64,000 nt of DNA, taken from contig OZ241875.1 in the NCBI GenBank assembly GCA_965203325.1, positions 864,001 to 928,000 of the forward strand, read 5' to 3'. The stretch's first letter is position 1, and each line of letters starts with the position of its first letter. This document shows, piece after piece, positions 875-62,160 of this stretch. The notes beneath the pieces were generated by a model. It worked only from the letters and a program-made list of their open reading frames with translations. It was not told the origin of the DNA and did not search any database. This stretch comes from a bacterium. GTDB lineage: Bacteria; UBA8248. The position numbers were made by a program, and so were the translations under genes.

Positions 875-1146
875 GGGCCTGTTGAAAAAGTCCCGTGGAG
901 CGATTTTGGCTGGGCGTAAGTTTTTGAAGTTCACTCCCCCTTGAGGGGGAGTCGAAGAGCTAAGGGCGTAAGCCCGAAAGCGATTCGGTGGGGGGATGAT
1001 TCGGAATGGCGATAAAATGTATTTTACCCCCCACCGCATCAGCCTTCGCAAAAAACGCTCGGCTTCTTCGTCTGGCTTTCCCCTCGGGAAGCCAGACCCT
1101 CAAGGGGGGAGCGATTCCTCTCTTCTCGGGGTTTATCAACAGCCCC
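875..1146. mobile_element. MITE-like unit with IS1182-type ends enclosing a family-A palindromic element
   Basis: GGGCCTGTTGAAAAAG at 875 and GGTTTATCAACAGCCCC ending at 1146 match the termini of the IS at 24227-25748. No coding capacity. Confidence 0.6.
931..1114. repeat. Family-A structured palindromic repeat (copy 1)
   Basis: Arms TCACTCCCCCTTGAGGG...CCCTCAAGGGGGGAG with internal GGTGGGGGG/CCCCCCACC stem. Homologous to 24084-24226, 60122-60275 and 61792-61952. Confidence 0.85.
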
Positions 1147-1239
1147 CCGGGGACAAGGACAGTGAGGCATCACATTAAGGCGAAAAGAAACCTCTCATCC
1201 AACTAAACACCGGAAAAATAAACCGATAAGGATACACGC

Positions 1240-2415
1240 ATGGATTTCGAACTGAGTGAAGAGCAAAAAAGCCTGCAGCTTCTCGCGCGGGAATTCGCGA
1301 TGGAGGAGATGCTGCCAGAGGTGGCCGAACTCGAGAAACGCCCCGACGGGGAGGACAAGTTCCCCTACGACCTGGTGAAGCGCGGCGCCGCGCTCGGCTT
1401 CCACTCCCTGGGCGTGCCCGAGGCGCACGGGGGCGACGGGGCCAGCGTCCTCACCCAGTGCATCGTCGTGGAGGAACTCTCCGCCGGCTCGCCCGCCGTC
1501 TCCAAGGTGTACAGCCACAACTGGAAGGGGATCGCGGGCTTGATCGCCGTGGCGACGCCCGAACAACTCGCCCGCGTTATTCCCGCCTATCTCGAAGACC
1601 CGCTCTATTGCATCGGCATCGCCATCACGGAGCCCGATGCCGGCAGCGACAACGCGCTCCCCTTCGACGCGGACCCGGCGGCAGGCCCCGCCCTCAGCGC
1701 GGTGCGCGAGGGGGATCATTACGTCCTGAACGGCACGAAGCAGTTCATCGCCATGGGCGCGCAGGCGAAGTACGTCACCGCCTTCGCCCGGACGGACAGG
1801 AGCGTCCCGTGGACGAAGGGCACGACGGGGTTCATGATCTTCCCGCCGCACGATGGCTTCGAAGTCGGCAGGCTGCACGACAAGGTGGGGCTCAGGTGCT
1901 ATCCCCAGCACGACCTCATCTTCCGCGGCGTGCGGGTGCCGGTGGAAGACCGCCTGGGCGAGGAGGACAGGTTCCAGGAGGGCCGGAGGAGCGTGACCAA
2001 CGTCGGCACCGTGGAGGCGACGGCCACCTCTTTGGGCATCGCCCGGCGCGCGTACGACCTGGCGCTCTCCTATGCGCGCGAGCGTGTGCAGGGCGGTAAG
2101 CCCATCATCGAGCACGACTTGATCGGCGCGCTCCTGCTCGAGATGTTCACCCGCCTGGAAGCCGCGAGAACGCTGCTCTGGCGCGCCGCCTGGAGCATCG
2201 ACAACGGAGTCCACGATCAGAAACTCGCGCGGGCGACGAAGGTGCTCGCCGTCGAGACGCTGAACTATCTCGCGACGAAGGCGGTGGAAATCTGGGGCGG
2301 CATGGGCGTGATGAAGGACGCGCCCGTGGAGAAGGTCTACCGCGACGCGATCCAGCTTTACCACATGGGCAACACGAACCAGGTGAACGTCCTGAAGGCC
2401 CTGCCCCACCTGTGA
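1240..2415 (+). CDS. Acyl-CoA dehydrogenase family protein
   Basis: Motifs [48 protein letters not shown]. Confidence 0.93.
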
Positions 2416-2507
2416 AGATTCAGGGCATCGAATTGCCTCTTGTATTTCGCGCGGTTTTTGAGGATTCTATTCGTGTAGCGAACCGGAAAGCGAGAAGGAG
2501 ATTCGAC

Positions 2508-2906
2508 ATGATAGAGAAAACGGATGCGGAGTGGCGCGAGCAGTTGACGCCCGAGCAGTACCACGTCACCAGAAAGGCGGGCACCGAGCGCGCCTTCAGC
2601 GGGAAATACTGGGACTGCCACGATGACGGCATCTACGCGTGCGTTTGCTGCGGGACGGAGCTTTTCGACGCCAAAACCAAGTTCGATTCGGGCACGGGCT
2701 GGCCGAGCTTCTACCAGCCGCTCAGGCCCGAAAACGTGGGCGAGAAGGAGGACAACTCCTTCTGGATGCGCCGCGTGGAGGTGGTGTGCTCGAACTGCGA
2801 CGCGCACCTGGGCCACGTGTTCTCCGACGGCCCGCTGCCCACCGGCCTTCGCTACTGCATGAACTCGGCATCGCTGGACCTGAAGCCGAAAGACACTTCC
2901 GAATAG
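2508..2906 (+). CDS. msrB: Peptide-methionine (R)-S-oxide reductase
   Basis: [34 protein letters not shown] and two Zn CxxC motifs. AGGAG RBS precedes ATG 2508. Confidence 0.96.
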
Positions 2907-3011
2907 TTTTATACCGGCATAAAGGGATGAATTTATACGGAACCTGACGCCATTTGCGCGATAATAGATATAAAAGAGCGCCATTTTTCAGAATCACAGG
3001 AGACAGCACCC

Positions 3012-3455
3012 ATGAGCATTCAACGCTTTCATAACGTATCCCTGACGGTGAAGGACGCGGACGCATCTTCGAAATGGTACGCCGAGAATTTCGGCTTCGA
3101 GGTGGAATCGGATTCGGAGCGAACGCCGGATTTCTCGGCCCAGGTGACGGGCGTTCCGGGCGCGGTTCTCCGCGTGGTGCACATGGGCGGCCACGGGCTT
3201 CACTTGGAACTCATGGAGTACAAGGGCGCTGCCGGAGCGGCGGTGGACACCTCCCCCAACAACGCGGGCTGCCTGCAGATCGGCTTCGTGGTGGACGACG
3301 CCGAAGCCCTTTTTGAGAAACTCAAATCACAGGAAACCGCCATGTGTTCGCCGGAACCCGCCACGGTGCCGAGCGGCCCCATCCAGGGCTCAAAAATCTT
3401 CTTCTGCAAGGACCCCGACGGCGTGGTGCTCAAGTTCCTGTCGATCAAGAAGTAG
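3012..3455 (+). CDS. VOC/glyoxalase family protein
   Basis: FHNVSLTVKD...LELMEY...QIGFVVDD...KDPDG pattern. Confidence 0.85.
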   Translation: MSIQRFHNVSLTVKDADASSKWYAENFGFEVESDSERTPDFSAQVTGVPGAVLRVVHMGGHGLHLELMEYKGAAGAAVDTSPNNAGCLQIGFVVDDAEALFEKLKSQETAMCSPEPATVPSGPIQGSKIFFCKDPDGVVLKFLSIKK

Positions 3456-3497
3456 GGGTTTCATAAGGGACGTGAACCGGCCCTCCCTGTTTCTCTG

Positions 3498-3609
3498 GCA
3501 GGGGCGTCGGACGAGGGAAAGTTCGAATGTGTCCGCCCTTGGGATTTTCGGTTCTCTCTCGACCCCGCAGGGACGAAACTTCAAGAGCGGCTCGTGAGCC
3601 GCCCCTGCA
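3498..3609. repeat. GTAG/GCAG-type REP-like short palindromes
   Basis: GAGCGGCTCGTGAGCCGCCCCTGC (3586-3609) is a near reverse complement of GTAGGGGCGGCTCGCGAGCCGCCC at 22872. A degenerate partner lies at 3498-3540. Confidence 0.6.
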
Positions 3610-3633
3610 ACTTCCATCAAACCGAACAAGACC

Positions 3634-15235: not shown

Positions 15236-15772
15236 GGTCAAAGCCGGTTGATGAATGAGGGTTTGTGGGCGTAATGCGGCGCGGGAGGAAGTGCGGGCAG
15301 TTGCGGGCAAATGCGCGGGAACCAAAAAACTTTTTGGGCCGCCATATCTGAGTGTAAGACGCTAAGATTTATATGATAACCCTTTTTATTACAATCATTT
15401 ACATGGACATTATTTTTCAGGAATTTATCGAAAAACCCCGTGAATTTACACATATTTATCGAAAATATCATTATTTTCATATTCATCATCCATCCCCGTT
15501 CCATGAGTGCACATCCCCTGCGAGAAAAAGCCCCACTGATAAGGTCAAACGCGAGTGAAGAACGAGTGTCGAACACGACTGATGAAGGAGCGATCGAAGA
15601 CTGTTCGGATGGGTTCGCCGTCTTCATTCTCGCCTCAACGACCGATTCCATGCAAAAGCCTCCGCGCCTTTCGGTTCCATTCCAAATCATGCGGGAGAAA
15701 CCGTTTTCCCGCGTCGCGCGCACGATACCGGAATCCGCTGTTTCAGAGAGTACGGCAATTGCGGGGAAATGC
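15236..15772 (-). repeat. ~400-bp dispersed element (copy 2, inverted, with a longer non-matching middle segment)
   Basis: Reverse complement of 3634-4040; segment ~15500-15700 does not align with copy 1. Confidence 0.9.
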
Positions 15773-15900
15773 ATGCATAGAGCACCACCCAAATCGATGC
15801 ACACGCCGAAAATCCGAGTCTTGATACAATAGTTTTACTAAATTATAATGCCTATATAGCGACACAAGCATCACCACGAGGAAACTCTTAGGCTGGAGGC

Positions 15901-18900
15901 ATGCCTATGACTTTCGCGTGTTCACTTACTAGATACTTCTTCTTGGTTATAATCACCCTCACTTTCCTCGGCTGCAAAACAGAAGAAACCGTCTCGCTGC
16001 GCGAGGCGAAGACCATCACGACGGAATTCGTGGGAAAAACCTTCAAAGTCCCTCCCCGTTCGTCCGAAGACCTGATCGAATTGGCGGCAAGGTATGATCG
16101 ACCAGCCGCTGTTGCAGGGGATATTGCGAATTTACAACGAGAGGCGCAAGCCGAAGCGAGCGAAACAGTCAAGGCTGACCCAGCTCGCTATATCGCCCTC
16201 CTCAAAGACAGGATGATGAAGCGCTACGAAGTCGGTGATATCAGAGGCTCCGTCGAGGACGCACGTCTGGCGTACCGGATTTATATGCGGTCCGATCCGG
16301 ACATATACGCCGGTGAATTGCTGCGAAGAATCGCATGGCGTGAATTTACGGGCGGAGACTTCAGTGAAGCCCTCCGTATCGCCGAGATGGGGTTGGCGCG
16401 CGCCAACTTCAAAAGCCAACACACAAATCTAGCGCAACTGCTCCGCATGGCGGTGTGGCGCGGGGAGGTCGAAGAGGCAAAGCGATATTTACAAAATATC
16501 GAAATATTACGCTTTGATAAGAAATTTCACAGACGGGTATATGAAGGACGAGAAGCAGTCGCCCGGGCCGAAGGCCGCTGGGTTGATGCGGAACAAGCGG
16601 CGAGAAATTTGGAATCTCACTTACGCGATGTCTACTCCGGTTACTGGGTGCCCCGGAAAGTTACTGATGTCACAGTCTTGATTGCGAATTCTCTCATCGA
16701 GCAGGGCCGTCTCCAGGAAGCAGAGCTGCTTCTTCGTGAACGACTGCTCCACGAACTAAAGCGGTTCGGCTCGTCGCGCGAGACGATCATCGCGGGTCTT
16801 TATGAAAGATTGGGCCAGGTCTATCTCCGCGCCGGTCGATTCGAAGATGCACTGACGCTCGCCCGCCAGTCCTGCGCCATCAGCAACCGGTTGAAACTGG
16901 GTTGGGACGCATCGCCATTCAGGGCATCGGGCGGGCTTACAGGCTGTGTAAATCTGAAGGCGAAGTCACTATTGGTTTTGCGCCGCTTCAAAGCCACACG
17001 AGCGGCGTTTGATGAGATAAAAGCCGGGTTTGGGCGCGTTAACCTCGAAGGTTTCAACAGCTTTATTCGGGACGACCCCAATCGCCTCCTGACCCTGATT
17101 CTGACCGGACCCAAAGCTGATACCGGCACCATCGTCGATGAATTGCTTGCCCGCCTCACTAAAAGGCTAGGTCCGCAGCACTACCAGAGCGCCGAGGCGA
17201 AAGCACTCAAGGCTGCACTGCTTGCGCGCTCGGGCAAGCCTGCGGCTGCTCTGCCACTGTTCCGTAAGGCGTTCTCCGTCATGAGCAGAAACTCGCAACG
17301 CCCCGGTGGAGCCGACGCCGGTTTGGTGCGCCAACGCTTCACCTATTTTTCCGAAATCTATCTCAATGCGATTGCGGAGGTCCTCGCAGGCAAACAGACG
17401 CCCGCGCTCGTCGAAGAAGCGTTTCTTGTCGCCGCCGAGGCGCGCGCGCATCGTGTGAGCGCCGCCGTGTCTGCGAGCGTCTCGCGTAGCCGCATCGCCG
17501 ACCCCGAACTCGCCGAACTCGCCCGCCGGGAGCAAGACGCGCAACGTCAGGTTCGAGCACTTCGTGGATTGTTGGCGAACGCGACCCTACGCGGCGGCTC
17601 GGACGCCACACGCGAGCAACTCAGTACGCGGGTCAATGGCTTGCGGGCCGCCCGCGCCGCGATTGTCAAGGAACTCGAGCAACGCTTCCCGGCGTACGCG
17701 GAGATTATCAACCCGAAACCACCGAGCCGTTCCTCGATTCAGCACGCGCTCCGAGGCGGCGAAGCATTGGTGAGCTTCTACTTCACCGAAAAACGCGGTT
17801 TCACCTTCGTCGTGCCGAAGTCGGGTCCTATTACCTTGGTCGATAGCGGTGTCTCGCGGCGTGAAATCGCCAAGCGAATCGCGCCGTTGCGGGCCGCCCT
17901 GGACCCCGACGCGGCGACGGTGGGAGATATCCCGGCATTCGACGTGGAGGCCGCCTGGACGCTCTACCGGGATATTCTGCATCCGGCACGTAGCGCGCTC
18001 GATGGAGCGTCTCTCCTAGTGGTGGTAAACCACGCCGCGATGGGCCAGCTTCCCCTGGCGGTGCTGACGACCGAGCCTGCAAAGCTCGCCCGCAGCGATC
18101 TACTGTTCGCTGAGTACCGCGGCGCGCCGTGGCTGGTGCGGCGCTGGTCGAGCGCGGTCGTCGCTTCAGAAGCCGCCTTCGTGGCGGGCCGCTCCGTCCG
18201 GCCGCCGCCTTTGCAGCGTCACGAACTTGTAGCGTTTGGTGATCCGGTGTTCCGTAAAGGCCAGACAGCGAAGGTGGAAGTCGCTTCGGCTGCTCCGGTG
18301 CAGAGCCGGGGGCTGAGGCTGCGCAGGCGGAGCATACCCCGTACGCTGCGTTTACGGAGCGCGAACCTTTCCGATCTCTCGCCGCTGCCCGATACGCGTG
18401 AAGAAGTCGAGGCGATCGCCGTGGCGCTCAAGGCGAACCTGGGAGAAGACGTTTTCCTGGGGGCAGAGGCTTCGGAGAAACGGGTGAAGACGACAGACCT
18501 CTCAAACAGGCGTGTCGTCGTGTTCGCGACGCACGGTCTCGTTCCGGGCGACCTCGACGGCCTGAGCCAGCCGGCTCTGGCACTGGCAACGCCCGAGAGC
18601 GGAAGCGAGGACGGGCTGCTCACGCTCTCCGAGATCATGGGGCTTCGTTTGAACGCGGACTTGGTGGTACTCTCAGCGTGCAACACGGCGGCGGGTGACG
18701 GCGCGGGTGCGGAGGCGATATCGGGGCTGGCGCGCGGGTTTCTCTATGCGGGGGCGAGGGCCTTGCTCGTCAGCGGCTGGCCGGTGGAAACGACGAGCGC
18801 ACGGCTTCTCACGACGAAGCTGTTCGAGGGACAAAATAAGGAAAACACGGCGTGGCCGGAAGCGTTGCGCCACGCAAGCCTAGAGCTTGCGGACGATGGC

Positions 18901-18990
18901 ATTTACCGACTCCAGAACGGAAAGGCGGCCTTCTCCTATGCGCATCCCCTGTTCTGGGCCCCATTCTTCATCGTAGGGAGCAGCGGCTGA
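15901..18990 (+). CDS. TPR/helical-repeat + CHAT (caspase/HetF-like) protease, probable lipoprotein
   Basis: Lipobox-like TFLGC after a hydrophobic stretch. CHAT motifs LVAFGDP, LPDTREEV, VFATHG (His), LVVLSACNT (Cys), HPLFWAPF. Confidence 0.9.
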   Translation: MPMTFACSLTRYFFLVIITLTFLGCKTEETVSLREAKTITTEFVGKTFKVPPRSSEDLIELAARYDRPAAVAGDIANLQREAQAEASETVKADPARYIALLKDRMMKRYEVGDIRGSVEDARLAYRIYMRSDPDIYAGELLRRIAWREFTGGDFSEALRIAEMGLARANFKSQHTNLAQLLRMAVWRGEVEEAKRYLQNIEILRFDKKFHRRVYEGREAVARAEGRWVDAEQAARNLESHLRDVYSGYWVPRKVTDVTVLIANSLIEQGRLQEAELLLRERLLHELKRFGSSRETIIAGLYERLGQVYLRAGRFEDALTLARQSCAISNRLKLGWDASPFRASGGLTGCVNLKAKSLLVLRRFKATRAAFDEIKAGFGRVNLEGFNSFIRDDPNRLLTLILTGPKADTGTIVDELLARLTKRLGPQHYQSAEAKALKAALLARSGKPAAALPLFRKAFSVMSRNSQRPGGADAGLVRQRFTYFSEIYLNAIAEVLAGKQTPALVEEAFLVAAEARAHRVSAAVSASVSRSRIADPELAELARREQDAQRQVRALRGLLANATLRGGSDATREQLSTRVNGLRAARAAIVKELEQRFPAYAEIINPKPPSRSSIQHALRGGEALVSFYFTEKRGFTFVVPKSGPITLVDSGVSRREIAKRIAPLRAALDPDAATVGDIPAFDVEAAWTLYRDILHPARSALDGASLLVVVNHAAMGQLPLAVLTTEPAKLARSDLLFAEYRGAPWLVRRWSSAVVASEAAFVAGRSVRPPPLQRHELVAFGDPVFRKGQTAKVEVASAAPVQSRGLRLRRRSIPRTLRLRSANLSDLSPLPDTREEVEAIAVALKANLGEDVFLGAEASEKRVKTTDLSNRRVVVFATHGLVPGDLDGLSQPALALATPESGSEDGLLTLSEIMGLRLNADLVVLSACNTAAGDGAGAEAISGLARGFLYAGARALLVSGWPVETTSARLLTTKLFEGQNKENTAWPEALRHASLELADDGIYRLQNGKAAFSYAHPLFWAPFFIVGSSG

Positions 18991-19622
18991 TGAAAATACT
19001 CCTCCTCGTTATTTCGTTTTCACTAACGCTCCCCACCACCGCCGGTGAGGCGACGGAACCCGTGGCAATAGTCGAGGAAGCAAGCGCCGACGCGCCGGTG
19101 AGGATCTTCAGCTATCTCTCGCAAGGCCAGATCATCAATCTCGGTCCCAAAGCGGAATTGTTAATAGGATTTCTTCGGAGTTGTGTTCAAGAACGCGTCC
19201 GTGGCGGAGTCGTTAAGATTGGAGCGGACCGCAGCCACGTCACCAACGGCCAGCGCTCCGCAAAGCCCCTGGATTGCGGAGGTGCGGCGAAGTTGTCCCG
19301 CGCCGAGTCCGAGCGTGGCGCCGCCCTCGTAATGCGCAAACCTCCTGTGCCCGCACCGAAGATTAGGCTCACGTCGACAACTCCCCTCATTGCACCGAGA
19401 CACCCGGCCTCCTCTGTGCGTCTGACACGTCTCGACCGCAGGGAGACCGCCATGAAATTGGCGCTCCGAAGCGGGGTTGCCGACCTTGCCGCCATGGGCG
19501 TTACCCTGCGTCGTGGCGGAACCTATCGCGTCAAGGCAGGTGCGGCGTCAACCGTCGTCAAGATAGCGCCGGATGCCCAAGCCGGAGGCGGATCCATCCT
19601 GGTGCGTCTGCTTTCATTCTAA
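18990..19622 (+). CDS. Secreted hypothetical protein, translationally coupled to CHAT gene
   Basis: TGATG overlap at 18988-18992, signal peptide, two Cys, beta-rich sequence. Confidence 0.75.
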   Translation: MKILLLVISFSLTLPTTAGEATEPVAIVEEASADAPVRIFSYLSQGQIINLGPKAELLIGFLRSCVQERVRGGVVKIGADRSHVTNGQRSAKPLDCGGAAKLSRAESERGAALVMRKPPVPAPKIRLTSTTPLIAPRHPASSVRLTRLDRRETAMKLALRSGVADLAAMGVTLRRGGTYRVKAGAASTVVKIAPDAQAGGGSILVRLLSF

Positions 19623-19626
19623 GGCG

Positions 19627-21624
19627 ATGTTCTCGATTCGGCGCGATTTGCCGGCGCCTCTGATTGCGGCGGCAGTCGCCGCGTTATTCCTGTTCTCCGG
19701 GCCCGCCGACTGGCTACGCGGCCCATCGCTTGATGCGCTATTTTTCCTTCGCGCATCGCTCTTCGATACGCCCCGTTCTCACGAACCGCCAATTTCAATC
19801 GTCGCCCTCGACGAGGAAACCTACCGTCGTCCGCCATTTCGCGGCACGCCCAAGGCCCTGTGGACGCCAGAAATCGGCCAAGTCCTGAGCGCCGTTCTCG
19901 ACGGCGGCGCGTCGGTGGTCGGCTTCGACCTCATCATGGCGACCTCGGCGGAAACGCGCCTACCGGGGCACGACCACGCACTCTTGTTGGCCCTCAGGCG
20001 CGGCAGCAAGCAGGGCCGTATCGTACTCGCGCGCGTCCAGCATCAGACCAAGCCAATCAGCCCCTTTCCCGGCCTTGCCATCGCCGCAGGACGCGGGCGC
20101 AACATTCGTTTCGCCAATGTTTTTTTCGATCCAGATGGTGTGGTCCGTCGCGTGCCATCCTTGTTCCGTGTGGCTACACCGCAAGGCGAAGTTTTGGAAC
20201 CGAGCTTCCCACTCGAGATCGCCGCACGCTACCGGGGAGTGACGCCTGAGCAAATCGGAGAGAACCGTGCCGGCCTGGGGAGTAAACCGATGCGCGGAAC
20301 GGCGAAAACCCAAGGTTTGTCGCTCAACTTCCAGTCGGGCTCGACAGCTTATCCGACTTACTCTCTTGCGGATCTCTACGCCTGCGCCAAGGCGGGACAC
20401 ACCGAATTCTTCCGCAAGGCCTTTGCCGGTCAGGTCGTTCTGTTCGGAGCGGTTCTCGACGCCGAAGATCGCCTCCTTACTTCCAAACGCTTTATCACCG
20501 GGGCTGAGCGCGACCGACAGGCCCCACGCTGCGTATACCCGGTCATGGAGGGTCTTTATCATAAGGACGTTCCCAGGCAACTCATCCCGGGCGTGGTCGT
20601 GCAAGCGACGGCAATCGACAACTACGTGCGTAACGCCGGATTGGTTTCGCCGACATTGGTGCCGGAGGAAGCGATTATCATCCTCTTCTCCATCCTGTGC
20701 GCGTGGCTCTTTCAACGGGCGCCCCTTGGCTGGTCGGTGGCGGGTATTCTCATTTTCGGCGCCGCATGGACCATTGTGGCCGCATACACGCTCCGACAAG
20801 GCGTCGTCCTACCTGGCCTAACCCTTGTGGTGGCACTGATTGCCGCCGCGGTCGTCGCCGTGGCGTATCGATATCTCGTCACAGACAAGGACAAGCGCGC
20901 GGTTCGCCATTATTTTTCGATGTACCTCTCACCGACGATCGTCGACCGGCTTATGGCCACCGGCGCCGCCCCTTCCCTCGGAGGAGAAAACCGCGAGGTA
21001 ACGATTCTCATCAGCGATGCCGAAGACTACACGGCCCTGAGTGAGAACATGACGCCCGAGCGCGTCGTCGACCTCGTCAATCACTATTTCGAAGTGCTCG
21101 CAGGCGCAGTCGAACGGCATGGAGGCTTCGTCGACAAATTCATGGGGGACGGCATGCTCGCGGTTTTTGGCGCTCTTATCGATGAGCCTGACCACGCGGC
21201 CAACGCCGTCGCCGCCGCATTGGAACTCCAAGCCCTTACCATTGCTGATTCCAAACTCCTCCGCCCGGACGGCGGACCGCTCCGCACCCGCGTGGGGATT
21301 GCGACGGGGCCGGTGGTGGTCGGGAATATCGGTTCCCGCACACGTCTGAACTATACCGTCATCGGCGATACGGTGAATCTGGCGGCCCGACTCGAATCGG
21401 AAAACAAGGCGCAAGACACATCGATTCTGGTGGCGGAAGATACCGCGCGCGCCGCCGGGCTTGAGGGTTTCGATTTCGTAAGCCGCATTACTGTCCGGGG
21501 ACGAATCGCGGAAGTCGCCGCGTACACGCCAAAACGGCTACCGCCACAACCCGATTCTTCCGAAGTGGGCATACAAGAGAATTCGGCGGAGGCTAAAAGA
21601 GAGATATCACCGGAAAACCAATGA
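19627..21624 (+). CDS. CHASE2-domain class III adenylate/guanylate cyclase
   Basis: IVALDEET, DPDGVVRR and IPGVVVQA (CHASE2); three TM helices; ILISDAEDYT, DKFMGDG, YTVIGDTVNLAARLE. Confidence 0.92.
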   Translation: MFSIRRDLPAPLIAAAVAALFLFSGPADWLRGPSLDALFFLRASLFDTPRSHEPPISIVALDEETYRRPPFRGTPKALWTPEIGQVLSAVLDGGASVVGFDLIMATSAETRLPGHDHALLLALRRGSKQGRIVLARVQHQTKPISPFPGLAIAAGRGRNIRFANVFFDPDGVVRRVPSLFRVATPQGEVLEPSFPLEIAARYRGVTPEQIGENRAGLGSKPMRGTAKTQGLSLNFQSGSTAYPTYSLADLYACAKAGHTEFFRKAFAGQVVLFGAVLDAEDRLLTSKRFITGAERDRQAPRCVYPVMEGLYHKDVPRQLIPGVVVQATAIDNYVRNAGLVSPTLVPEEAIIILFSILCAWLFQRAPLGWSVAGILIFGAAWTIVAAYTLRQGVVLPGLTLVVALIAAAVVAVAYRYLVTDKDKRAVRHYFSMYLSPTIVDRLMATGAAPSLGGENREVTILISDAEDYTALSENMTPERVVDLVNHYFEVLAGAVERHGGFVDKFMGDGMLAVFGALIDEPDHAANAVAAALELQALTIADSKLLRPDGGPLRTRVGIATGPVVVGNIGSRTRLNYTVIGDTVNLAARLESENKAQDTSILVAEDTARAAGLEGFDFVSRITVRGRIAEVAAYTPKRLPPQPDSSEVGIQENSAEAKREISPENQ

Positions 21625-21711
21625 GCGCACAAGGATATTTGCAAATCGCAAAACCCCGCAATTGCTCGTACCTCGTTCGGAAAACCTTCCTTCCTCAGCC
21701 GGGTTTGCCCC

Positions 21712-23055: not shown

Positions 23056-23131
23056 TTGGTGGTCAACTCCGAGCGAGGAGGGATTTTTCAACACCCCCTC
23101 GACGGAGAGCATCGCCTTTATCCCCCTGTTA

Positions 23132-23195
23132 AGGGGTTGTTGAAAAAGTCCCTGAAAGGAAAACCCCATAAAGGCAACCCCCCCTACCCCCCCCC
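23132..23195. repeat. Truncated family-B element with IS-like end
   Basis: GGGGTTGTTGAAAAAGTCCC...CCCATAAAGGCAACCCCCCCTACCCCCC, cut at the stop codon of the next gene. Confidence 0.7.
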
Positions 23196-23966: not shown

Positions 23967-24083
23967 GATGGAAGCCTCCTTGTTGTCCCGCTCGGAAGGG
24001 AATTGTTGAAAAAGTCCGCATAGAGACCGCTCTTAATTTCACTCCTCCCTTGAGGATGAGGCGTAATCAACGAAAGAGGAATT

Positions 24084-24226
24084 TCACTCCCCCCTTGAGG
24101 GGGAGTCACAGAGGCCGAGCGGTTTATGCGAAGGCCGATGTGGTGGGGGGAGCTTCTATCCGTGGCATGTCCCCCCACCGAATCGCTTGCGGGCTTCGCC
24201 CTTAGCTCTTCGACTCCCCCTCAAGG
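24084..24226. repeat. Family-A palindromic repeat (copy 2), right arm split by the IS
   Basis: Right arm GACTCCCCCTCAAGG resumes as CAAGGGGGGAGT at 25749-25760. Confidence 0.85.
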
Positions 24227-25748
24227 GGGGCTGTTGAAAAACCCCGTTTTGAAGCGGGAGGTATGGCGTCTCACGCAGCGGCGGAGAGGAAGCCCGCGAG
24301 GTGCGTGAGGCCGCCAGGAACGCGCATTCGGCGTCTCAAGGCGGCGCAGGCCCTCCACAGAGCGAATAAACGCGCCGCAACAGCGGCGGCGAGCCGCTTG
24401 AGGTTCACCGCAGTCGCCGTCAGGTAGGCCTGGATCCTTATGTTCGCAAGACCCCGGCGCACCGCCCGCGCCAGGCCGTGCCAACTCTTCGCCTCGCCGT
24501 GATAGCCCTCCGAGCGACCCATGTGCCGGCGCCACAGCCGACCCTCCTCCTCCCCACGGCGCGTGTGGCGACGGCGCGCGCGTAACAGCGCCGGATACTC
24601 ATGCGGAACCAGCACCGTCCTGCTCGTGCGGGACTTCGACAGACAATCGGCCTTGAGCGCGCAGCCCGCGCAATCGCGCGTCCTCGATACATAGTAGCGA
24701 CCCCGCTCCGTCTCCTTCCGGGGGCGCAGCGTCTTGCCCCCCGGACACTTCACCACCTTGTGACGCTCATCGTAGCGGAACAGCTGCAACGGCACCCGGC
24801 TCTGGGAAGGCTCCTTCTTCGCCGGTATCACCGCGTCCACCCCCCGACGCTCCAATGCGCCGTACACCTTCGAGTACGCATAGCCCGAATCCGCCGTCAC
24901 CACCCCGGGCGCGCGCCCCGTGAGCTCGCAAACCGCATCCAACTGCGGCTCCATCATCTCCCGCTCGTTCAACGTCCCCTCCGTCACCGCAACGTCGAGG
25001 ACAACGCCCCGCTCATCGTCCACCACCGCGTGGTGCTTGTAGCTCGGCTCGAACCCCGCCCGAGCGCTCTTGCGCGCCAGGCGAGCGTCCGGGTCCGTTC
25101 GGCTCACAGACCCCGAACCCCCGCCCCGGCCTTTGCCCTTCTTCTCCGTCTCATCCTCCGAATCGTTCTCCCGCACCACCTTCTCCGCGTGGCGCTCCGC
25201 CAGACTCTCCCAGCTCACGTCCGCACGTATCAAAGAGGCGTCCATGTGAACCACCTCTCCCGTCGCCACCTTCGCCTCCACGCAAGCCTGAACCGTGCGG
25301 CGCAATACCTCCTTGAAGCGCTCCTCCCCCCAGCGCTGGCGAATCCGCGTCAGGCTCGAATGGTCCGGCAACTCCTCGTCCAGCCTGTACCCGATGAACC
25401 ACCGGATCGCCAGGTGCGCCTGCGCCTCGCGCAACAGACGCCGGTCGTGGGCGTAGCCCAGCAGCAGGCCCGCCAGCATCAACCGAACCACCACTTCGGG
25501 GTCCAGGCCCGGACGGCCATTGTCCGCGCAATAGCACTCCGCCACTTCCTCGCGAAGCCAGCTCAAATCCAGTACGCGGTCCACCTGCCGCAATATGTGA
25601 TCTTCGGGAATCAACTTCTCCAGCGGGCCGGCCACGAACAAGTCCATCTGCTCGCGCCTCTTGCGATCCAGCATCGAGGGAACTCCCATCTCGGGCGAGT
25701 CGGGATAACTCCATACGATCACAAAACCAAGGGTTTTTCAACAGGCCC
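24227..25748 (-). mobile_element. IS1182-family insertion sequence, copy 1 (1522 bp)
   Basis: Terminal IRs GGGGCTGTTGAAAAACCC / GGGTTTTTCAACAGGCCC. 5-bp direct repeat CAAGG at 24222-24226 and 25749-25753. Confidence 0.88.
24271..25674 (-). CDS. IS1182-family DDE transposase
   Basis: LIPEDHILR, GRPGLDP, LPDHSSL, MDASLIRA, TDPDA, ADSGY, CPGG...CAGCALKADC. Confidence 0.9.
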   Translation of the reverse strand: MLDRKRREQMDLFVAGPLEKLIPEDHILRQVDRVLDLSWLREEVAECYCADNGRPGLDPEVVVRLMLAGLLLGYAHDRRLLREAQAHLAIRWFIGYRLDEELPDHSSLTRIRQRWGEERFKEVLRRTVQACVEAKVATGEVVHMDASLIRADVSWESLAERHAEKVVRENDSEDETEKKGKGRGGGSGSVSRTDPDARLARKSARAGFEPSYKHHAVVDDERGVVLDVAVTEGTLNEREMMEPQLDAVCELTGRAPGVVTADSGYAYSKVYGALERRGVDAVIPAKKEPSQSRVPLQLFRYDERHKVVKCPGGKTLRPRKETERGRYYVSRTRDCAGCALKADCLSKSRTSRTVLVPHEYPALLRARRRHTRRGEEEGRLWRRHMGRSEGYHGEAKSWHGLARAVRRGLANIRIQAYLTATAVNLKRLAAAVAARLFALWRACAALRRRMRVPGGLTHLAGFLSAAA

Positions 25749-26070
25749 CAAGGGGGGAGTAGTTCTCCTTTTCTCGTCGGTCGCGTCGAGCCCTTATTCG
25801 TCCGGACTTTCTCAGCAACCCCCTCAAGGGGTCAATCTCGACTAAGGTGAGAGGGATTGTGAAATCTTCTACCCCTCCCCCCGATCACCTCCATACACCG
25901 AATCATGAAATATGAACTTATTCAACAACCCCAGAAGACTTAAGAAGCTCGGTGCATCACGATGCGGCGCTTCGTTGTCCGATGCAAGAGATTATGCCAT
26001 TATCACCGAAGCGCAAAACGCAAGGCATGGTATTCGGTCCACGGAAAACCACTCCCGAAGGGCGCTCGTT

Positions 26071-28829: not shown

Positions 28830-28937
28830 GGGGCGTAATCATTCCCCTTTTGAGGGGGTTGTTGAAAAAGGCATCATTGGTCGCAATGACGGCCAAAACC
28901 CGAACCCGGGCGGAGGCGCAGGCTGTCGCCTTGAAAA

Positions 28938-29053
28938 GCAACCCCCCCTACCCCCCCTTGTCAGGGGGGCAAGAAAAAGCAAAGCCCCCTCGGCCCGGCG
29001 GGGGCGCATCGCCTTTTTATACCCCCCTGACAAGGGGGGGTAGGGGGGGTTGC
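28938..29053. repeat. Family-B palindromic doublet (subtype B2) inside the mrp operon
   Basis: Arms CAACCCCCCCTACCCCCCCTTGTCAGGGGGG / CCCCCCTGACAAGGGGGGGTAGGGGGGGTTG. IS-like end at 28855. Confidence 0.88.
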
Positions 29054-29233
29054 CTTTATCCCTTGACAAGGGGGAGTGAATGGCAATCTCAATGAGGGAG
29101 AAATTTTTCCCTTCCTTGGGTAGTAACGACCCACAGGAAGGAAGTGGTTTTGGAAAGGGAATCATGAATTTAACAAGAAACCGTCAACTCGAGCACATGA
29201 TTCCCGACGCAAAAGCGCGCAGGAGACGATAAC

Positions 29234-32226: not shown

Positions 32227-32478
32227 GGGGTTGTTGAACAGACCCCTGCGCACCCCCTCGAATGAAGGCCGTAGGGGTCAGACATATATGTCTGACCCCG
32301 TGGCCGCCCTTGTCATCGGCTCGAAAACCAACCCCCCCTACCCCCCCTTGTCAGGGGGGTAAAAAAAGGCGGCGCCCACCGCCGATAGAGGGGCTTTTGT
32401 TTTTTCTTGCCCCCCTGACAAGGGGGGGTAGGGGGGGTTGCCTTTATCCCCTGAAAAGGGGCCCTTTTCAACATCCCC
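32227..32478. mobile_element. MITE-like unit: IS-like ends enclosing a GTAG REP (32271-32299) and a family-B2 doublet (32329-32440)
   Basis: GGGGTTGTTGAAC...CTTTTCAACATCCCC ends; GTAGGGGTCAGACATATATGTCTGACCCC. Confidence 0.65.
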
Positions 32479-37596: not shown

Positions 37597-37734
37597 GAGG
37601 AGCGTTCTCCCGCAGGTCCTGACAAATCCAAACAGACAAAATTCAGTCTCCGCTAGAAGGGATTGTTGAAAAAGTCCCCCTGAGGAGGGAGGGAATCCCA
37701 ATCATCGAATTGTTCACCGCAAACCATCGCGCCC

Positions 37735-37809: not shown

Positions 37810-37821
37810 GGAGGTGAACCG

Positions 37822-38481
37822 ATGGGCCGCAAACTCCTTGCCGAAGCAGTCGGAACCGCGTTTCTGCTCGCCGCCATCGCAGGCTCGGGCATCATGGGCG
37901 ACGCCCTCTCAAACGGGCAGGCGGGCGCCGCGCTCCTGCCGCACTCACTGGCGATAGGCGCGATCCTCTTCGTCATGATCACCCTGCTCGGGCCGGTCTC
38001 GGGCGCGCACTTCAACCCCGCGGTCACCATGGTCTTCGCCTTGAACGGGGATATGGAACAGCGCGAGGCCGCGCCCTACGTCGCCACGCAATTCCTCGCG
38101 GGCATCCTGGGCGTGCTCGCCGCGCACCTGATGTTCGACCTGGACATCGTCCAGGTATCGGCGAAACAGCGGGCGGGCATCGGCCAGTGGTCGGCGGAAG
38201 TAATCGCAACGGCGGGGCTGATATTCGTCATCATGGGCGGGCTGCGCACGAACGCGGCCCTCATCCCCGCGATGGTCGGGCTCTACATCATGGCGGCCCT
38301 ATGGTTCACGGCCTCGACCAGCTTCGCCAACCCGGCGGTCACCATCGCACGGGTCTATACCAACACGTTCTCGGGCATTCAGCCGTTCGACGCGCTGCCC
38401 TTCGTCATCGCCCAGTTCATAGGCGCGTTCTGCGGCTGGCGGCTGGCGTGTGCCGTCTGGCCCGGAGGGGATGACAACTGA
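37822..38481 (+). CDS. MIP family channel (AqpS-like, ars-associated aquaglyceroporin)
   Basis: SGAHFNPAVT and WFTASTSFANPAVT NPA boxes; GGAGG RBS. Confidence 0.88.
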   Translation: MGRKLLAEAVGTAFLLAAIAGSGIMGDALSNGQAGAALLPHSLAIGAILFVMITLLGPVSGAHFNPAVTMVFALNGDMEQREAAPYVATQFLAGILGVLAAHLMFDLDIVQVSAKQRAGIGQWSAEVIATAGLIFVIMGGLRTNAALIPAMVGLYIMAALWFTASTSFANPAVTIARVYTNTFSGIQPFDALPFVIAQFIGAFCGWRLACAVWPGGDDN

Positions 38482-38499
38482 TACGCGGGCGTGCCTTAC

Positions 38500-38711
38500 G
38501 GGGTTGTTGAAAACGCCCCTGAGAGGGTAATGGCAACCCCCTTGAAAGGGAAATTCCATAACGTCAACCCCCCCCTACCCCCCCTTGTCAGGGGTCAAAC
38601 GCGAGTGATGAACGAGCGTTTGCATAAACCATTGACGAGAAGCACATCGTCTTGCAAAACCTCCCTCTTCGGTCGGTTTTGACCCCTGACAAGGGGGGGT
38701 AGGGGGGGTTG
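38500..38711. repeat. Family-B1 element: IS-like end + flank + palindromic doublet (38565-38711)
   Basis: Near-identical to 39815-40081 and 54846-55109, but the spacer is inverted relative to the flank. Confidence 0.88.
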
Positions 38712-39814: not shown

Positions 39815-40081
39815 GGGGTTTTTGAAAAACCCCTTACAAGGTAATGGCAACTCCCTTGAAAGGGAAATCCCATAAAGGCAACCCCCCTACCCCCCTTGTC
39901 AGGGGTCAAAACCGACCGAAGAGGGAGGTTTTGCAAGACGATGTGTTTCTCGTCAATGGTTCATGCAAACGCTCGCTCATCACTCGCGTTTGACCCCTGA
40001 CAAGGGGGGTAGGGGGGGTTGATTTTTCATTCGAGAGGGCTTCTCCTCTACCCCTGAAATGTGGTCTTTTCCAACAACCCC
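39815..40081. mobile_element. Family-B1 MITE-like element with both IS-like ends
   Basis: GGGGTTTTTGAAAAACCC...CTTTTCCAACAACCCC enclosing the doublet at 39879-40021. Confidence 0.7.
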
Positions 40082-54845: not shown

Positions 54846-55109
54846 GGGGTTGTTGAAAAAGCCTTTATCAAGGGAGCGAACGCTCCCTCCGTGGTCGCGT
54901 TCAACCCCCTAATTCCACTTGTCAGGGGTCAAACGCGAGTGATGAGCGAGCGTTTGCATGAACCATTGACGAGAAACACATCGTCTTGCAAAACCTCCCT
55001 CTTCGGTCGGTTTTGACCCCTGACAAGGGGGGGTAGGGGGGGTTGCCTTTATGGGGTTTCCCTTTTAGAGGGTTGCCATTCCCCTCTCAGGGGGTTTTTC
55101 AACAGCCCC
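54846..55109. mobile_element. Family-B1 MITE-like element with both IS-like ends
   Basis: GGGGTTGTTGAAAAAGCC...GGGGTTTTTCAACAGCCCC enclosing the doublet at 54902-55045. A REP-like hairpin precedes it at ~54814-54837. Confidence 0.72.
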
Positions 55110-56452: not shown

Positions 56453-57343
56453 ATGCGCACCAAGGCGGACGATCTCCTCGAAGGCGCCATCGACGTTCAC
56501 GCCCATATCTTCCCCCAGGTATTCGTGGAAGAACCCGGGCGCGTGCTGGACCACGAATGGGCCGAACTCGCGCGCGACGTCGGCATGCGCGGCTTCGTGA
56601 TGAAGAGCCACCTGTGGCCCACCATCGCCCAGGCCAGGATTCTGAACGAGGTCTATCCGGGCGTCACCGCCTTCGGGGCCATCACGCTGAACGCCAACGT
56701 GGGCGGGCTTTCGCCCTTCGCGGCGGAAAGCGCGGCGCGCCTCGGCGTGAAGGTCATCTGGATGCCCACCTACTCCGCGGCGAACGACATCGAGGTGGGG
56801 GCCTACAGCAAGCGCATCGCTGAGGCTTATCAACAGCCCCCGCCCGCGCAGGGCCTGACCGTGCTGGACGCAGACGGCGCGATACGCCCCGAGGCGGACA
56901 CCATACTCGAAATCGCCCGCGACGCGGACGTGGCCGTGGCCACCGGCCATTTGTCGGCGGAGGAAGGCGTCGCCCTGGCGAGGCGCGCGAAGGAGATCGG
57001 GGTGAAAAAATTCATCTTCACCCACCCGATCATCTTCATCATCGACGCGAGCGAGGGGCAACTGCGCGAGGTGGCGGATTTGGGCTACATCGTTGAATTC
57101 ACCTGGATATCGGCCTTCCCCATGTGGCGCGACCTGGACCCCGTGAAAGTGGCCGAAACCGCGCGCGCCCTCGGCCCCGAGCGATGCGTGATGAGCACCG
57201 ACGCGCAACTCGACCTCAATCCCCCGCCGACGGAAATGCTGCGCATGTTCATCGCCACGATGCTGCGCCTGGGCTTCGAGGACGAGGAGATTCGCTGGAT
57301 GGTGCAGCGAAACCCCGCCCGCCTGATGGGCCTCGAAGAATAG
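56453..57343 (+). CDS. Amidohydrolase-like TIM-barrel protein (DUF6282-like)
   Basis: AIDVHAH, KSH, WMPT, ATGH, THP, STD. Confidence 0.75.
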   Translation: MRTKADDLLEGAIDVHAHIFPQVFVEEPGRVLDHEWAELARDVGMRGFVMKSHLWPTIAQARILNEVYPGVTAFGAITLNANVGGLSPFAAESAARLGVKVIWMPTYSAANDIEVGAYSKRIAEAYQQPPPAQGLTVLDADGAIRPEADTILEIARDADVAVATGHLSAEEGVALARRAKEIGVKKFIFTHPIIFIIDASEGQLREVADLGYIVEFTWISAFPMWRDLDPVKVAETARALGPERCVMSTDAQLDLNPPPTEMLRMFIATMLRLGFEDEEIRWMVQRNPARLMGLEE

Positions 57344-58229: not shown

Positions 58230-58230
58230 C

Positions 58231-59956: not shown

Positions 59957-60121
59957 ACTTTCGCGCCAGCGAGAGAGCAGGCCGCGCGCGTCCTCTCGCG
60001 CGTCTATCGCGCTCGTCTCATCAACGAGCGCGTTTTGCGGAAGTCGCCACGTGTGGGGCCTGTTGGAAAAGCCGGTGTGCGGCCCCTACGAAGTCGCTTT
60101 ACACAAATGAGAACACCAAAA

Positions 60122-60275
60122 TCACTCCCCCCTTGAGGGGGAGTCGAAGAGCTAAGGGCGAATGCCCGCAAGCGATTCGGTGGGGGGTATAATCCGGAAT
60201 GGCGATAAAATGCATTTTACCCCCCACCGCATCAGCCTTCGCACAAACCGCTCGGCTTCTGCGACTCCCCCTCAA
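60122..60275. repeat. Family-A palindromic repeat (copy 3), truncated by the IS
   Basis: Close homolog of 931-1114; ends at GACTCCCCCTCAA. Confidence 0.85.
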
Positions 60276-61791
60276 GGGGCTGTTGAAAAACCCCGTTTTG
60301 AAGCGGGAGGTATGGCGTCTCACGCGGCTTGGGAGAGGGAGCCCAATCGGCGCGTGAGGCCGCGGGGAACGCGCATTCGGCGTCTCAAGGCGGCGCAGGC
60401 TCTCCACAGAGCGAACAAACGCGCCGCAACAGCGGCGGCGAGCCGCTTGAGGTTCACCGCAGCCGCCGTCAGGTAGGCCTGGATCCTTATGTTCGCAAGA
60501 CCCCGGCGCACCGCCCGCGCCAGGCCGTGCCAACTCTTCGCCTCGCCGTGATAGCCTTCGGAGCGACCCATGTGCCGGCGCCACAGCCGACCCTCCTCCT
60601 CCCCACGGCGCGCGTGGCGGCGGCGCGCGCGCAACAGCGCCGGATACTCATGCGGAACCAGCACCGTCCGGCTCGTGCGGGACTTCGACAGACAATCGGC
60701 CCTGAGCGCGCAACCCGCGCAATCGCGCGTCCTCGATACATAGTAGCGACCCCACTCCGTCTCCTTCCGGGGGCGCAGCGTCTGGCCCCCCGGACACTTC
60801 ACCACCTTGTGACGCTCATCGTAGCGGAACAGCTGCAACGGCACCCGGCTCTGGGAAGGTTCTTTCTTCGCCGGTATCACCGCGTCCACCCCCCGACGCT
60901 CCAATGCGCCGTACACCTTCGAGTACGCATAGCCCGAATCCGCCGTCACCACCCCGGGCGCGCGCCCCGTGAGTTCGCAAACCGCATCCAACTGCGGCTC
61001 CATCATCTCCCGCTCGTTCAACGTCCCCTCCGTCACCGCAACGTCGAGGACAACGCCCCGCTCATCGTCCACCACCGCGTGATGCTTGTAGCTCGGCTCG
61101 AACCCCGCCCGAGCGCTCTTGCGCGCCAGGCGAGCGTCGGGGTCCGTTCGGCTCACAGGACCCGAACCCCCGCCGCCGCCCTTCTTCCCGCCCTCATCCT
61201 CCGAGTCGTTCTCCCGCACCACCTTCTCCGCGTGGCGCGCCGCCAGACTCTCCCAGCTCACGTCCGCCCGGATCAACGAAGCGTCCATGTGCACCACCTC
61301 TCCCGTCGCCACCTTCGCCTCCACGCAAGCCTGAACCGTGCGGCGCAATATCTCCTTGAACCGCGCCTCCCCCCAGCGCTGACGGATACGCGTCAGGCTC
61401 GAATGGTCCGGCAACTCCTCGTCCAGCCTGTACCCGATGAACCACCGGATCGCCAGGTGCGCCTGCGCCTCGCGCAACAGACGCCGGTCGTGGGCGTAGC
61501 CCAGCAGCAGGCCCGCCAGCATCAACCGAACCACCACCTCGGGGTCCAGGCCCGGACGGCCATTGTCCGCGCAATAGCACTCCGCCACCTCCTCGCGCAG
61601 CCAGCTCAAATCCAGTACGCGGTCCACCTGCCGCAATATGTGATCTTCGGGAATCAACTTCTCCAGCGGGCCGGCCACGAACAAGTCCATCTGCTCGCGC
61701 CTCTTGCGGTCCAACATCGAGGGAACTCCCATCTCGGGCGAGGGGGGATACATCCATACGATCACAAAACCAGGGGTTTTTCAACAGGCCC
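60276..61791 (-). mobile_element. IS1182-family insertion sequence, copy 2 (1516 bp)
   Basis: Same IRs as copy 1. Flanks CTCAA / TTGAG are inverted rather than direct repeats. Confidence 0.88.
60320..61717 (-). CDS. IS1182-family DDE transposase
   Basis: Highly similar but not identical to 24271-25674 (2-aa indel in the Gly-rich linker, different C-terminal tail). Confidence 0.9.
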   Translation of the reverse strand: MLDRKRREQMDLFVAGPLEKLIPEDHILRQVDRVLDLSWLREEVAECYCADNGRPGLDPEVVVRLMLAGLLLGYAHDRRLLREAQAHLAIRWFIGYRLDEELPDHSSLTRIRQRWGEARFKEILRRTVQACVEAKVATGEVVHMDASLIRADVSWESLAARHAEKVVRENDSEDEGGKKGGGGGSGPVSRTDPDARLARKSARAGFEPSYKHHAVVDDERGVVLDVAVTEGTLNEREMMEPQLDAVCELTGRAPGVVTADSGYAYSKVYGALERRGVDAVIPAKKEPSQSRVPLQLFRYDERHKVVKCPGGQTLRPRKETEWGRYYVSRTRDCAGCALRADCLSKSRTSRTVLVPHEYPALLRARRRHARRGEEEGRLWRRHMGRSEGYHGEAKSWHGLARAVRRGLANIRIQAYLTAAAVNLKRLAAAVAARLFALWRACAALRRRMRVPRGLTRRLGSLSQAA

Positions 61792-61952
61792 TTGAGGGTC
61801 GAGCTTCCCGAGGGGAAAGCTCGACGATGAGGTGAGGGTGAAAACCCGAAACCGAATCGGTGGGGGGAGATTTACTCTGTGGCATGTCCCCCCACCAACT
61901 CGCCTGCGGGCTTCGCCCTTGCCTCGTTGACTCCCCCTCAAGGGGGGAGTGA
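61792..61952. repeat. Family-A palindromic repeat (copy 4)
   Basis: Starts TTGAGG at the IS end and finishes GACTCCCCCTCAAGGGGGGAGTGA. Confidence 0.82.
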
Positions 61953-62160
61953 AGTCTCCTCCCTGCTCGGTCGGTTACATAACCCGAATTACAGAATCAG
62001 GTTTTTCAACAACCCCGCCTGGAGGAACGTCCTGCATCCCGGCCCGTGCGATGAATGAAAAATACCGGACGCGCTGGAGACGCACGCCCGCCTTGTCTTA
62101 TAATCATTTCATAAAATCTCGTTTACGTGGAATATGATCGGGAACCATATACCCACCCAC

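Follow-up and report, generated by a model that had tools for sequence, protein, structure and literature searches.

Nested repeats in the analyzed window

The window analyzed in this study is the whole stretch of 64,000 nucleotides from position 864,001 to 928,000 of contig OZ241875.1 (assembly GCA_965203325.1), which originates from a bacterium of the lineage UBA8248. Its source genome (G000) is a single contig of 4.39 Mb with a G + C-content of 60.4%; all other G numbers used below refer to comparison genomes and L numbers to fetched loci. The intergenic DNA of the window includes two complete copies of an insertion sequence (IS) of the IS1182 family, six inward-facing pairs of a motif which also forms the ends of this IS (such pairs are referred to as shells), and palindromic repeats as the cargo of these shells. 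With a probability of roughly 0.6 this arrangement is explained by three separate repeat systems, namely the IS, shells resembling MITEs (miniature transposable elements with inverted repeats) and the palindromic cargo, which are stacked in intergenic DNA. Three major cargo families were distinguished. In family B, the CCCCCC-TTGWCA-GGGGGG palindrome occurs twice, in inverted order; family A consists of two ACTCCCCCCTTGAGGGGGAGT palindromes together with GGTGGGGGG/CCCCCCACC, and family C of two repetitive extragenic palindromes (REPs) with a GTAG head. The features of the window are:

24228..25747, minus strand: IS copy 1, 1,520 bp, with its transposase open reading frame (ORF) at 24271-25722 on the minus strand, within a family-A palindrome
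60277..61790, minus strand: IS copy 2, 95.8% identical to copy 1, with its transposase ORF at 60320-61765
24000..25931, no strand: composite shell with an end at 24000(+), IS-interrupted family-A cargo and two inward ends, a degenerate one at 25806-25824 and another at 25919-25931
60057..62015, no strand: shell in which the IS lies between two family-A inner elements
731..1145, no strand: nested locus whose outer end lies at 731(+) and which includes a family-A element with a separate left end (876); the right end (1133-1145) is common to both
32228..32477, no strand: family-B shell of 250 bp with two palindromes of the CCCCCC-TTGWCA-GGGGGG type
39816..40080, no strand: family-B shell of 265 bp; family-A cargo at this position in G016
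54847..55108, no strand: family-B shell of 262 bp
23085..23146, no strand: two outward-facing ends (23085-23097 minus, 23134-23146 plus), an arrangement kept in G012
28856..29215, plus strand: single end with family-B cargo, also found in G016 and not at this position in G012 and G010
37660..37672, plus strand: unpaired end bordering a block rearranged in relatives
38501..38513, plus strand: unpaired end, followed by family-B palindromes
56827..56839, minus strand: probable chance match with one mismatch, within long ORFs

A search with the 13-mer end motif GGVYTGTTGAAAA, allowing at most one mismatch, yielded 23 matches in the window, as compared to a mean of 0.41 and a maximum of 3 in 100 shuffles of the window. 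Four of these matches are the termini of the two complete IS copies (24228, 25735-25747, 60277, 61778-61790). Another 18 are located one to five bases from the sites at which an original prediction, made from the letters of this stretch, had placed recurring IS ends in intergenic DNA, and the recurrence as such was thereby confirmed. These are 731, 876/1145, 23085-23097(-), 23134(+), 24000, 25919-25931(-) and 28856 in the first half of the window, and 32228/32477, 37660, 38501, 39816/40080, 54847/55108 and 60057/62015 further downstream. The end predicted near 25822 (25806-25824) is a degenerate copy with two mismatches, which was read by eye. The match at 56827-56839 (-) is probably due to chance, as it contains one mismatch, lies within long ORFs and has no counterpart of the motif in three of three relatives.

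Six pairs of the window face inward and one (23097-/23134+) faces outward. In the entire genome the 9-mer core of the motif occurs 300 times (about 10 expected) and the 13-mer, again with at most one mismatch, 427 times, of which 32 matches are IS ends and 395 are others. Neighbors within 1000 bp among these 395 form 91 inward-facing and 6 outward-facing pairs; since inward pairing strongly exceeds outward pairing, the pairing of the ends is real, just as had been proposed from the window. Within 400 bp, 30 like-oriented neighbors stand against 3 outward-facing ones. The consensus of the shell ends is GGGG(T/C)TGTTGAAAAA(G/C)(C/T)CC, that of the IS end GGG(G/C)CTGTTGAAAAACCCC.

Clustering placed 876-1145, 24000-25931 and 60057-62015 in family A and 32228-32477, 39816-40080 and 54847-55108 in family B, which reproduces the predicted grouping. 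Likewise, complete IS1182 elements were indeed found inside the cargo of two shells (24228-25747 and 60277-61790). At the nested locus 731..1145, the outer end at 731(+) bears an arm similar to the transposase-proximal end of the IS, together with a family-B element's left half, which extends as far as the first palindrome of that element. Beyond the outer ends of this locus a direct repeat of 6 bp (CATAGG/CATCGG) is found, and G014 exhibits no element here. The arm of the end at 25919-25931 also resembles the transposase-proximal IS end. The two outward-facing ends at 23085..23146 each adjoin what remains of a palindrome from one family-B inner element.

The IS1182-family element and its target

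The IS has a length of 1,520 bp according to BLAST (ends +/-1), contains a single transposase ORF of 483 amino acids and carries GGGSCTGTTGAAAAACCC at both ends. Members of the IS1182 family range from 1.3 to 1.95 kb in ISfinder, and both the single-ORF organization and the length of the element fit this family. Its transposase matches the NCBIfam IS1182 equivalog NF033551 with 349.4 bits (cut-off 270) and contains the Pfam domains DUF772, DDE_Tnp_1 and DDE_Tnp_1_6. Going by these matches, the element belongs to the IS1182 family, and a DDE chemistry is predicted from its domains.

In total, 16 copies of the IS were detected in the source genome by BLAST, four of them at 100% identity (query included), two at 99.93% and the rest at 91.5-96.5%. 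All 16 copies are placed centrally, in the loop, in palindromes consisting of a C-run, a loop and a G-run, and these palindromes are of two types, ACTCCCCCC-TTGA-GGGGGAGT and CCCCCC-TTGWCA-GGGGGG. Matching direct repeats were found by inspection at 14 of the 16 copies. The other two are flanked by halves of different palindromes and look recombinant. IS copy 2 of the window (60277-61790), whose flanks stem from two different palindromes (left CTCAAG, right CTTGAG), looks recombinant; G016 possesses an intact palindrome at its position. One clean empty site was identified for the IS: G000 reads CCCCCCCTTGAC-[IS]-CTTGACAGGGGGG, and the intact palindrome, in the same family-B shell, is present in G012, G016, G011 and G010.

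In addition, 55 related IS loci from other genomes were fetched, and both ends could be located in 46 of them. Among these 46 copies, palindrome halves are found on both sides of 35 and on one side of 8, with 3 copies lacking them altogether; a perfect 5-bp repeat is present at 34. The original statement that the enclosed palindromes are the target of the IS therefore holds for 16 of 16 copies in this genome and for the 43 of 46 copies in relatives which are flanked by a palindrome half on one or both sides. A duplication of 6 bp (CTTGAG) had been the first reading of these junctions and was replaced by one of 5 bp, which is the better fit at three non-palindromic insertions (L032, L041, L055); these fit a 5-bp duplication together with 4-nt GGGN/NCCC termini. 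At palindromic sites one base of the duplication length is ambiguous. As shown by the junctions compared here, the IS evidently inserts into the loop of the palindrome and duplicates 5 bp of this loop.

Contigs from four metagenome runs were all short and broken at repeats, and none of them bridged the IS at 24228-25747. Their loose ends included IS ends beside palindrome halves in other contexts. The window, or parts of it, was found mainly in sponge and marine metagenome runs (X1-X20). The contig depth over the IS was 10-100x that of its flanks, as is expected for a multi-copy element.

The loci L070-L072 (G032, G030) contain IS1182 relatives with 64-65% protein identity from another family of the class, and their ends read GGGGCTGTTGAAAAAGCC. 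A different and longer inverted repeat (CCCAACAGCTT.CCGATCATGG...) flanks these elements and is either another palindromic target or an indication that the true IS ends lie further out.

Shells as MITE-like elements

Without IS copies, the 91 inward-facing pairs of the genome span 80-656 bp, mostly 160-330 bp, and seven pairs contain eight IS copies. Clustering assigned 34 shells to family B, 19 to family A and 10 to family C, followed by families of 3 and 2 members and 23 singletons. In the genome, about 90 shells are complete and some 200 partial, and they have the terminal 14-15 bp in common with the IS (GGGN-YTGTTGAAAAA). With their small size, their terminal inverted repeats and their ends matching a resident IS, these shells are MITE-like elements bounded by the terminal 14-15 bp of the IS, and this part of the original prediction was right.

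The flanks of the shells were inspected for traces of transposition. A match of at least four of five flanking bases is present at 26 of the 91 pairs, where shuffled partners gave 8.5 on average and 16 at most, and a perfect 5-bp match at 7 pairs, as compared to 0.95. Furthermore, one clean empty site of a shell was found: G010 reads CCCC-GTAGG-[305-bp shell]-GTAGG-GACAG where G012 reads CCCCGCAGGGACAG. The target duplications and empty sites which the original prediction had named as a check are hence present as an excess of 5-bp repeats and as one clean empty site each for shell and IS. As far as can be read from these flanks, the shells are shown to have transposed in the past, and we infer that they were moved in trans by the IS1182 transposase.

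A C-run plus loop is found directly outside 83 of the 395 shell ends, 155 of 5000 control sites and 28 of the 32 IS ends, so that the shells appear to have the target preference of the IS in a weaker form. With respect to a possible origin of the shells from the IS by internal deletion, the transposase-proximal subterminal motif of the IS (GTGAT..CGTATGGAG) occurs at the matching position in 10 of 395 arms, as compared to 2.5 expected. A general likeness of the shell arms to the subterminal DNA of the IS is not significant overall; a small subset of arms has the motif in common with it.

Within a shell family, the ends are 77-82% and the inner modules 75-78% identical, and the arms which join them 41-61%. 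Only seven pairs of shells align over at least 90% of both members, the best of them with 94.9% identity (family A, different loci, 255 bp).

Orthologous sites and probable cargo turnover

The window was compared with syntenic stretches of 64-74 kb from G016, G012, G010 and G014, in which aligned blocks are 85-97% identical; the comparison covers this one 64-kb syntenic block and one extra locus. The end motif is usually present at the same junctions in the relatives, and because an end occupies the same position in sister species, most shells are probably old. At all seven shell loci of the window the class of the interior differs in at least one relative. The locus 60057-62015, for example, contains two family-A elements with the IS between them in G000, one element each of families A and B in G016, family B in G012 and another hairpin family in G010. 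Across 27 site-by-genome comparisons the flanks are on average 92% identical, the 16-nt ends 79% and the 40 nt that follow 66%; eight of the 27 exhibit orthologous arms (at least 80% identity) and seven a conserved end with an unrelated arm. A rare end variant (TTGGAAAAG) was dropped as a proof of end orthology, since the left end of 7 of the 91 listed pairs carries it. Finally, two like-oriented ends followed by one opposite end were found twice in the window (731/876/1145 and 24000/25824/25931) and also in G012 and G010.

Such a pattern could arise if cargo were swapped by ectopic homologous recombination or gene conversion via the common ends and arms, without any new transposition. Orthologous shells often diverge exactly at the inner edge of the 15-nt end (60057, 62015, G000 vs G012) and the ends are common to all shells, both of which fit this explanation. 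It is nevertheless quite unlikely, as 15-18 bp of imperfect homology are short for RecA-dependent conversion and as its simple form does not predict nested intermediates with an extra end. A further alternative is that the transposase swaps a resident inverted-repeat structure for the incoming element, as proposed for IS1272, so that a whole shell would be replaced in place. IS1272 is reported to replace target inverted repeats without duplication (PMC5678879, PMC4923244), and the identity of orthologous ends, which is no higher than that of paralogous ones, would allow an exchange of whole elements. Yet, the IS studied here retains its target and duplicates 5 bp, unlike the IS1272 mode, and the shells (160-330 bp) are far above the targets of 21-85 bp reported for IS1272, which makes this alternative very unlikely.

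At positions 3302-3572 of the syntenic stretch of G016 (corresponding to window 2470-2478), and probably in G014 too, a shell is located in the loop of a GTAG-type REP. This REP plus shell is wholly absent from G000, G012 and G010, and with the REP enclosing the shell the order of nesting is the reverse. The block at window 37766-38513 contains a gene of the MIP/aquaporin family (37822-38481; Pfam MIP, 82.6 bits) and is bounded in G000 by like-oriented end motifs (37660 and 38501). In G016 and G010 it is located on the other side of the neighboring 4.3-kb block, so that the two blocks are transposed, and in G012 it is not contiguous with its window neighbors. A stretch of about 6 kb in G000 (window 15500-21700), which is not present at this position in G016, encodes a TPR-CHAT protein of 1,029 amino acids and a CHASE2-adenylate/guanylate cyclase protein of 683 amino acids.

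Cargo palindromes, candidate mobilizers and distribution

Palindromes with C- and G-runs of five or more (C5+/G5+) occur 381 times in the genome, as compared to 38 for a reversed control. The two target types account for 307 palindromes: 81 are located within strict shells, another 115 are accompanied by a single inward end within 350 bp, and the other 111 lack one. A search of the whole window against Rfam at gathering thresholds was negative, and the inner elements accordingly do not correspond to a described RNA family. Inside one arm of the family-A palindrome, several copies and relatives contain a hairpin of 26 nt (TCTGGCTTTCCCCTCGGGAAGCCAGA or variants of it; window 1071-1096 and 61797-61826, and flanks of L025, L030, L031 and L050), which adds a further, smaller layer of nesting.

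The single strong DUF559 gene of G000 (134 bits) has a family-A palindrome on both sides, and the same applies to five close orthologues (66-80% identity; G010, G002, G022, G016, G032), so that six of six such genes are flanked. One of these orthologues stems from G032, a genome of another family. Two distant DUF559 homologues are not flanked by the family-A palindrome, and a close orthologue is present in only 6 of the 17 genus genomes which contain family A (G000 counted). The DUF559 endonuclease gene of G000 (G000:C1:3268723-3269103; L091/L094) is located outside the window and encodes 127 amino acids; 18 family-A palindromes lie within 1.5 kb on either side of it.

Two ORFs resembling REP-associated tyrosine transposases (RAYTs) exhibit weak Y1_Tnp matches (27.7 and 24.1 bits, cut-off 23), and related GTAG palindromes flank both. 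They are found outside the window at G000:C1:1659143-1659652 and 1662402-1662944 (L068, L069) and encode 169 and 180 amino acids; the first is followed by an in-frame TAG. GTAGGG...CCCTAC repeats occur 61 times in the genome, and 31 of them are one identical 28-mer. Only family C and the GTAG-REPs exhibit the combination of a GTAG head and a flanked RAYT gene which characterizes REPs and their inverted doublets (REPINs) in REP/REPIN-RAYT systems. A GTAG head is missing from families A and B, and family A flanks the DUF559 gene instead. The DUF559 and RAYT-like genes are candidate mobilizers of the cargo families.

Among 22 genomes of the same genus, 16 exhibit any match to the transposase, and exactly these 16 also contain the end motif (33-457 copies), which is absent from the six genomes without a transposase match. 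The core of the family-A palindrome is found in the same 16 genomes (17-193 copies), once in G015 and not at all in the other five. The six genomes without transposase hence contain no end motif and at most one palindrome each, which disagrees with the alternative named in the original prediction that the motif merely belongs to the REP consensus in genomes lacking the IS. In 7 of the 16 genomes (G002, G003, G004, G005, G011, G016, G021) only fragments of the transposase were found. As two of these seven are assembled in just 3 and 8 contigs, the shells appear to outlast the IS. In G032, 42 copies of the family-A palindrome are accompanied by only 2 end motifs.

These counts also bear on the idea that the end motif is a regulatory or structural site of the host, which it merely happens to have in common with the IS. 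The retention of ends at orthologous positions in several species would agree with a host function. In view of the surplus of 5-bp duplications, the clean empty site, the strict inward pairing, the identity of the motif to the IS termini and its absence from the six genus genomes without transposase, this idea was rejected as extremely improbable.

Probable stacking of three repeat systems

The nesting described in the original prediction is real. Its central proposal was that shell and cargo form one non-autonomous unit which is moved in trans and seeds IS targets throughout the genome, so that the transposon would spread its own landing pads. In agreement with this proposal, the cargo palindromes are the target of the IS, and the IS, the ends and the palindromes are found together in the same 16 genus genomes. 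Also, two family-A shells at different loci are 94.9% identical over 255 bp, which implies that a unit has moved at least once. Furthermore, 8 of 16 IS copies are located in strict shells, as compared to 81 of 307 palindromes (binomial p = 0.037, the copies not being independent), and this enrichment of the IS in shell-borne palindromes leans towards the proposal. On the other hand, the cargo differs between orthologous shells at seven of seven window loci, the arms within a family are only 41-61% identical and just seven pairs of shells align end to end. In addition, 111 of 307 palindromes have no end motif within 350 bp, G032 contains the palindrome and the DUF559 gene with almost no end motifs, and the cargo families have candidate mobilizers of their own. 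A transport of palindromes as passengers of the shells is therefore not supported in the form proposed and considered unlikely, and the original interpretation as a whole is partly borne out, with nesting and targeting as its correct parts.

In the explanation by three stacked systems, the first is an active IS1182-family element, shown to insert into the loops of C-run/loop/G-run palindromes, and the second comprises the MITE-like shells with IS termini, most of them old. The third would comprise independent cargo families, namely A (the DUF559-flanking palindrome), B, C (the GTAG-REPs with RAYT-like genes) and a further hairpin family. Cargo would then not be a fixed passenger of a shell, and its content could differ between species at orthologous shell positions, as is observed. 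The cargo palindromes may draw new insertions of IS and MITEs and nesting would result. This nesting would produce like-oriented ends, and a deletion between such ends would remove the older element. A slot would thus hold its position and have its content replaced. Like-oriented intermediates, as found in the window, G012 and G010, are predicted by this combination of nesting and deletion.

A second feedback may arise from the ends themselves. As the elements have ends of the form GGGN...NCCC, both junctions of an insertion rebuild C-run/loop/G-run palindromes: the split C and G arms are completed and one insertion turns one target-like palindrome into two. Indeed, 23 C5+/G5+ palindromes of the genome are completed by an element end, and two IS copies of relatives (L013 and L029) sit in such junction palindromes. 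The structure of the junction palindromes is thus shown by the sequence, and their use as a target only in part. It is tempting, and conceivable rather than probable, to assume that the element renews its own target in this way and that palindromic loci are self-perpetuating sinks with nesting and replacement in place, possibly including an IS1272-like replacement of hairpins. If so, the position of a slot should be constant across species while its content changes.

Several observations weigh against the explanation by stacked systems. A clear duplication is absent from 65 of the 91 shell pairs, 79% of the shell ends have no adjoining C-run, and only 4-6 of 395 arms surpass the best shuffle in their likeness to the IS outside the terminal 18 nt. 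Present-day movement of the shells has no support from experiments or read polymorphism, and the read contigs do not bridge the IS. The joint occurrence of IS, ends and palindromes in kin genomes may stem from a single clade. The pattern expected from nesting plus deletion would equally result from gene conversion between shells, and as orthologous ends (79% identity) are no closer to each other than paralogous ones (77-82%), retained ends are indistinguishable from a replacement of whole elements. At the locus L001, family-B cargo is kept in five of five species, which indicates that turnover is not universal. The enrichment of IS copies within strict shells given above has to be added to these points.

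Persistent intergenic slots with exchanged repeats bear on the interplay of REP-like sequences, MITEs and ISs and on how mobile DNA is kept off genes. The renewal of targets, if true, would offer a transposon a simple means of preserving safe landing sites without harm to the host.

Comparison with known systems

A keyword search of the literature, which was not exhaustive, for IS1182-ended shells around REP-like cargo, for nested bacterial MITEs and for cargo turnover yielded no report. The closest known case for the IS is IS1272, also a member of the IS1182 family, which is reported to cut the stem of a hairpin and to delete or replace this hairpin, without duplication and without preference for a primary sequence (PMC4923244, PMC5678879). 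A family review quoted there states that some IS1182 members target palindromic sequences (PMC4923244, PMC5678879). The element studied here resembles IS1272 in its transposase family and in its insertion into inverted-repeat or stem-loop DNA. Unlike what is reported for IS1272, it inserts into the loop, retains the arms of the hairpin and duplicates 5 bp, and its targets fall almost entirely into two classes by sequence, CCCCCC-TTGA-GGGGG and CCCCCC-TTGWCA-GGGGGG. The mechanism of hairpin targeting in the IS1182 family is so far a proposed model (that of IS1272), from which the mode found here differs. The copies described here represent a natural many-copy data set for hairpin recognition by an IS1182-family transposase.

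REPs are also targeted by IS1397/ISKpn1 and ISPpu9/ISPpu10, which belong to the IS3 and IS110 families. No large family of MITEs with the same ends is known around the palindromes used by these elements. As in these REP-targeting ISs of other families (PMC1525189, PMC12288879), copies of the IS studied here are located in repeated extragenic palindromes of the genome.

Bacterial MITEs such as RUP, Correia/NEMIS and Nezha are described as small, non-coding and present in many copies, with terminal inverted repeats matching those of an IS and with target duplications (PMC3733652). The shells share these properties. Unlike such MITEs, the shell families are heterogeneous; the ends and the inner modules are each conserved on their own, in contrast to the arms, and species differ in the interior at one and the same site.

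The cargo, in turn, is similar to REP/REPIN-RAYT systems and bacterial interspersed mosaic elements (BIMEs), as it consists of GC-rich palindromes, often in inverted doublets, forms intergenic mosaics and flanks a presumed mobilizer gene. GTAG-REPs and RAYT-like genes are themselves present in this genome. Different from REP/REPIN-RAYT systems, families A and B have no GTAG head, family A flanks a DUF559 gene, and the mosaics are bounded by IS-type ends. Each component is of a known kind, and what is new in comparison with these systems is the loop-insertion mode of the IS, the putative renewal of targets at its junctions and the persistence of slots with changing content.

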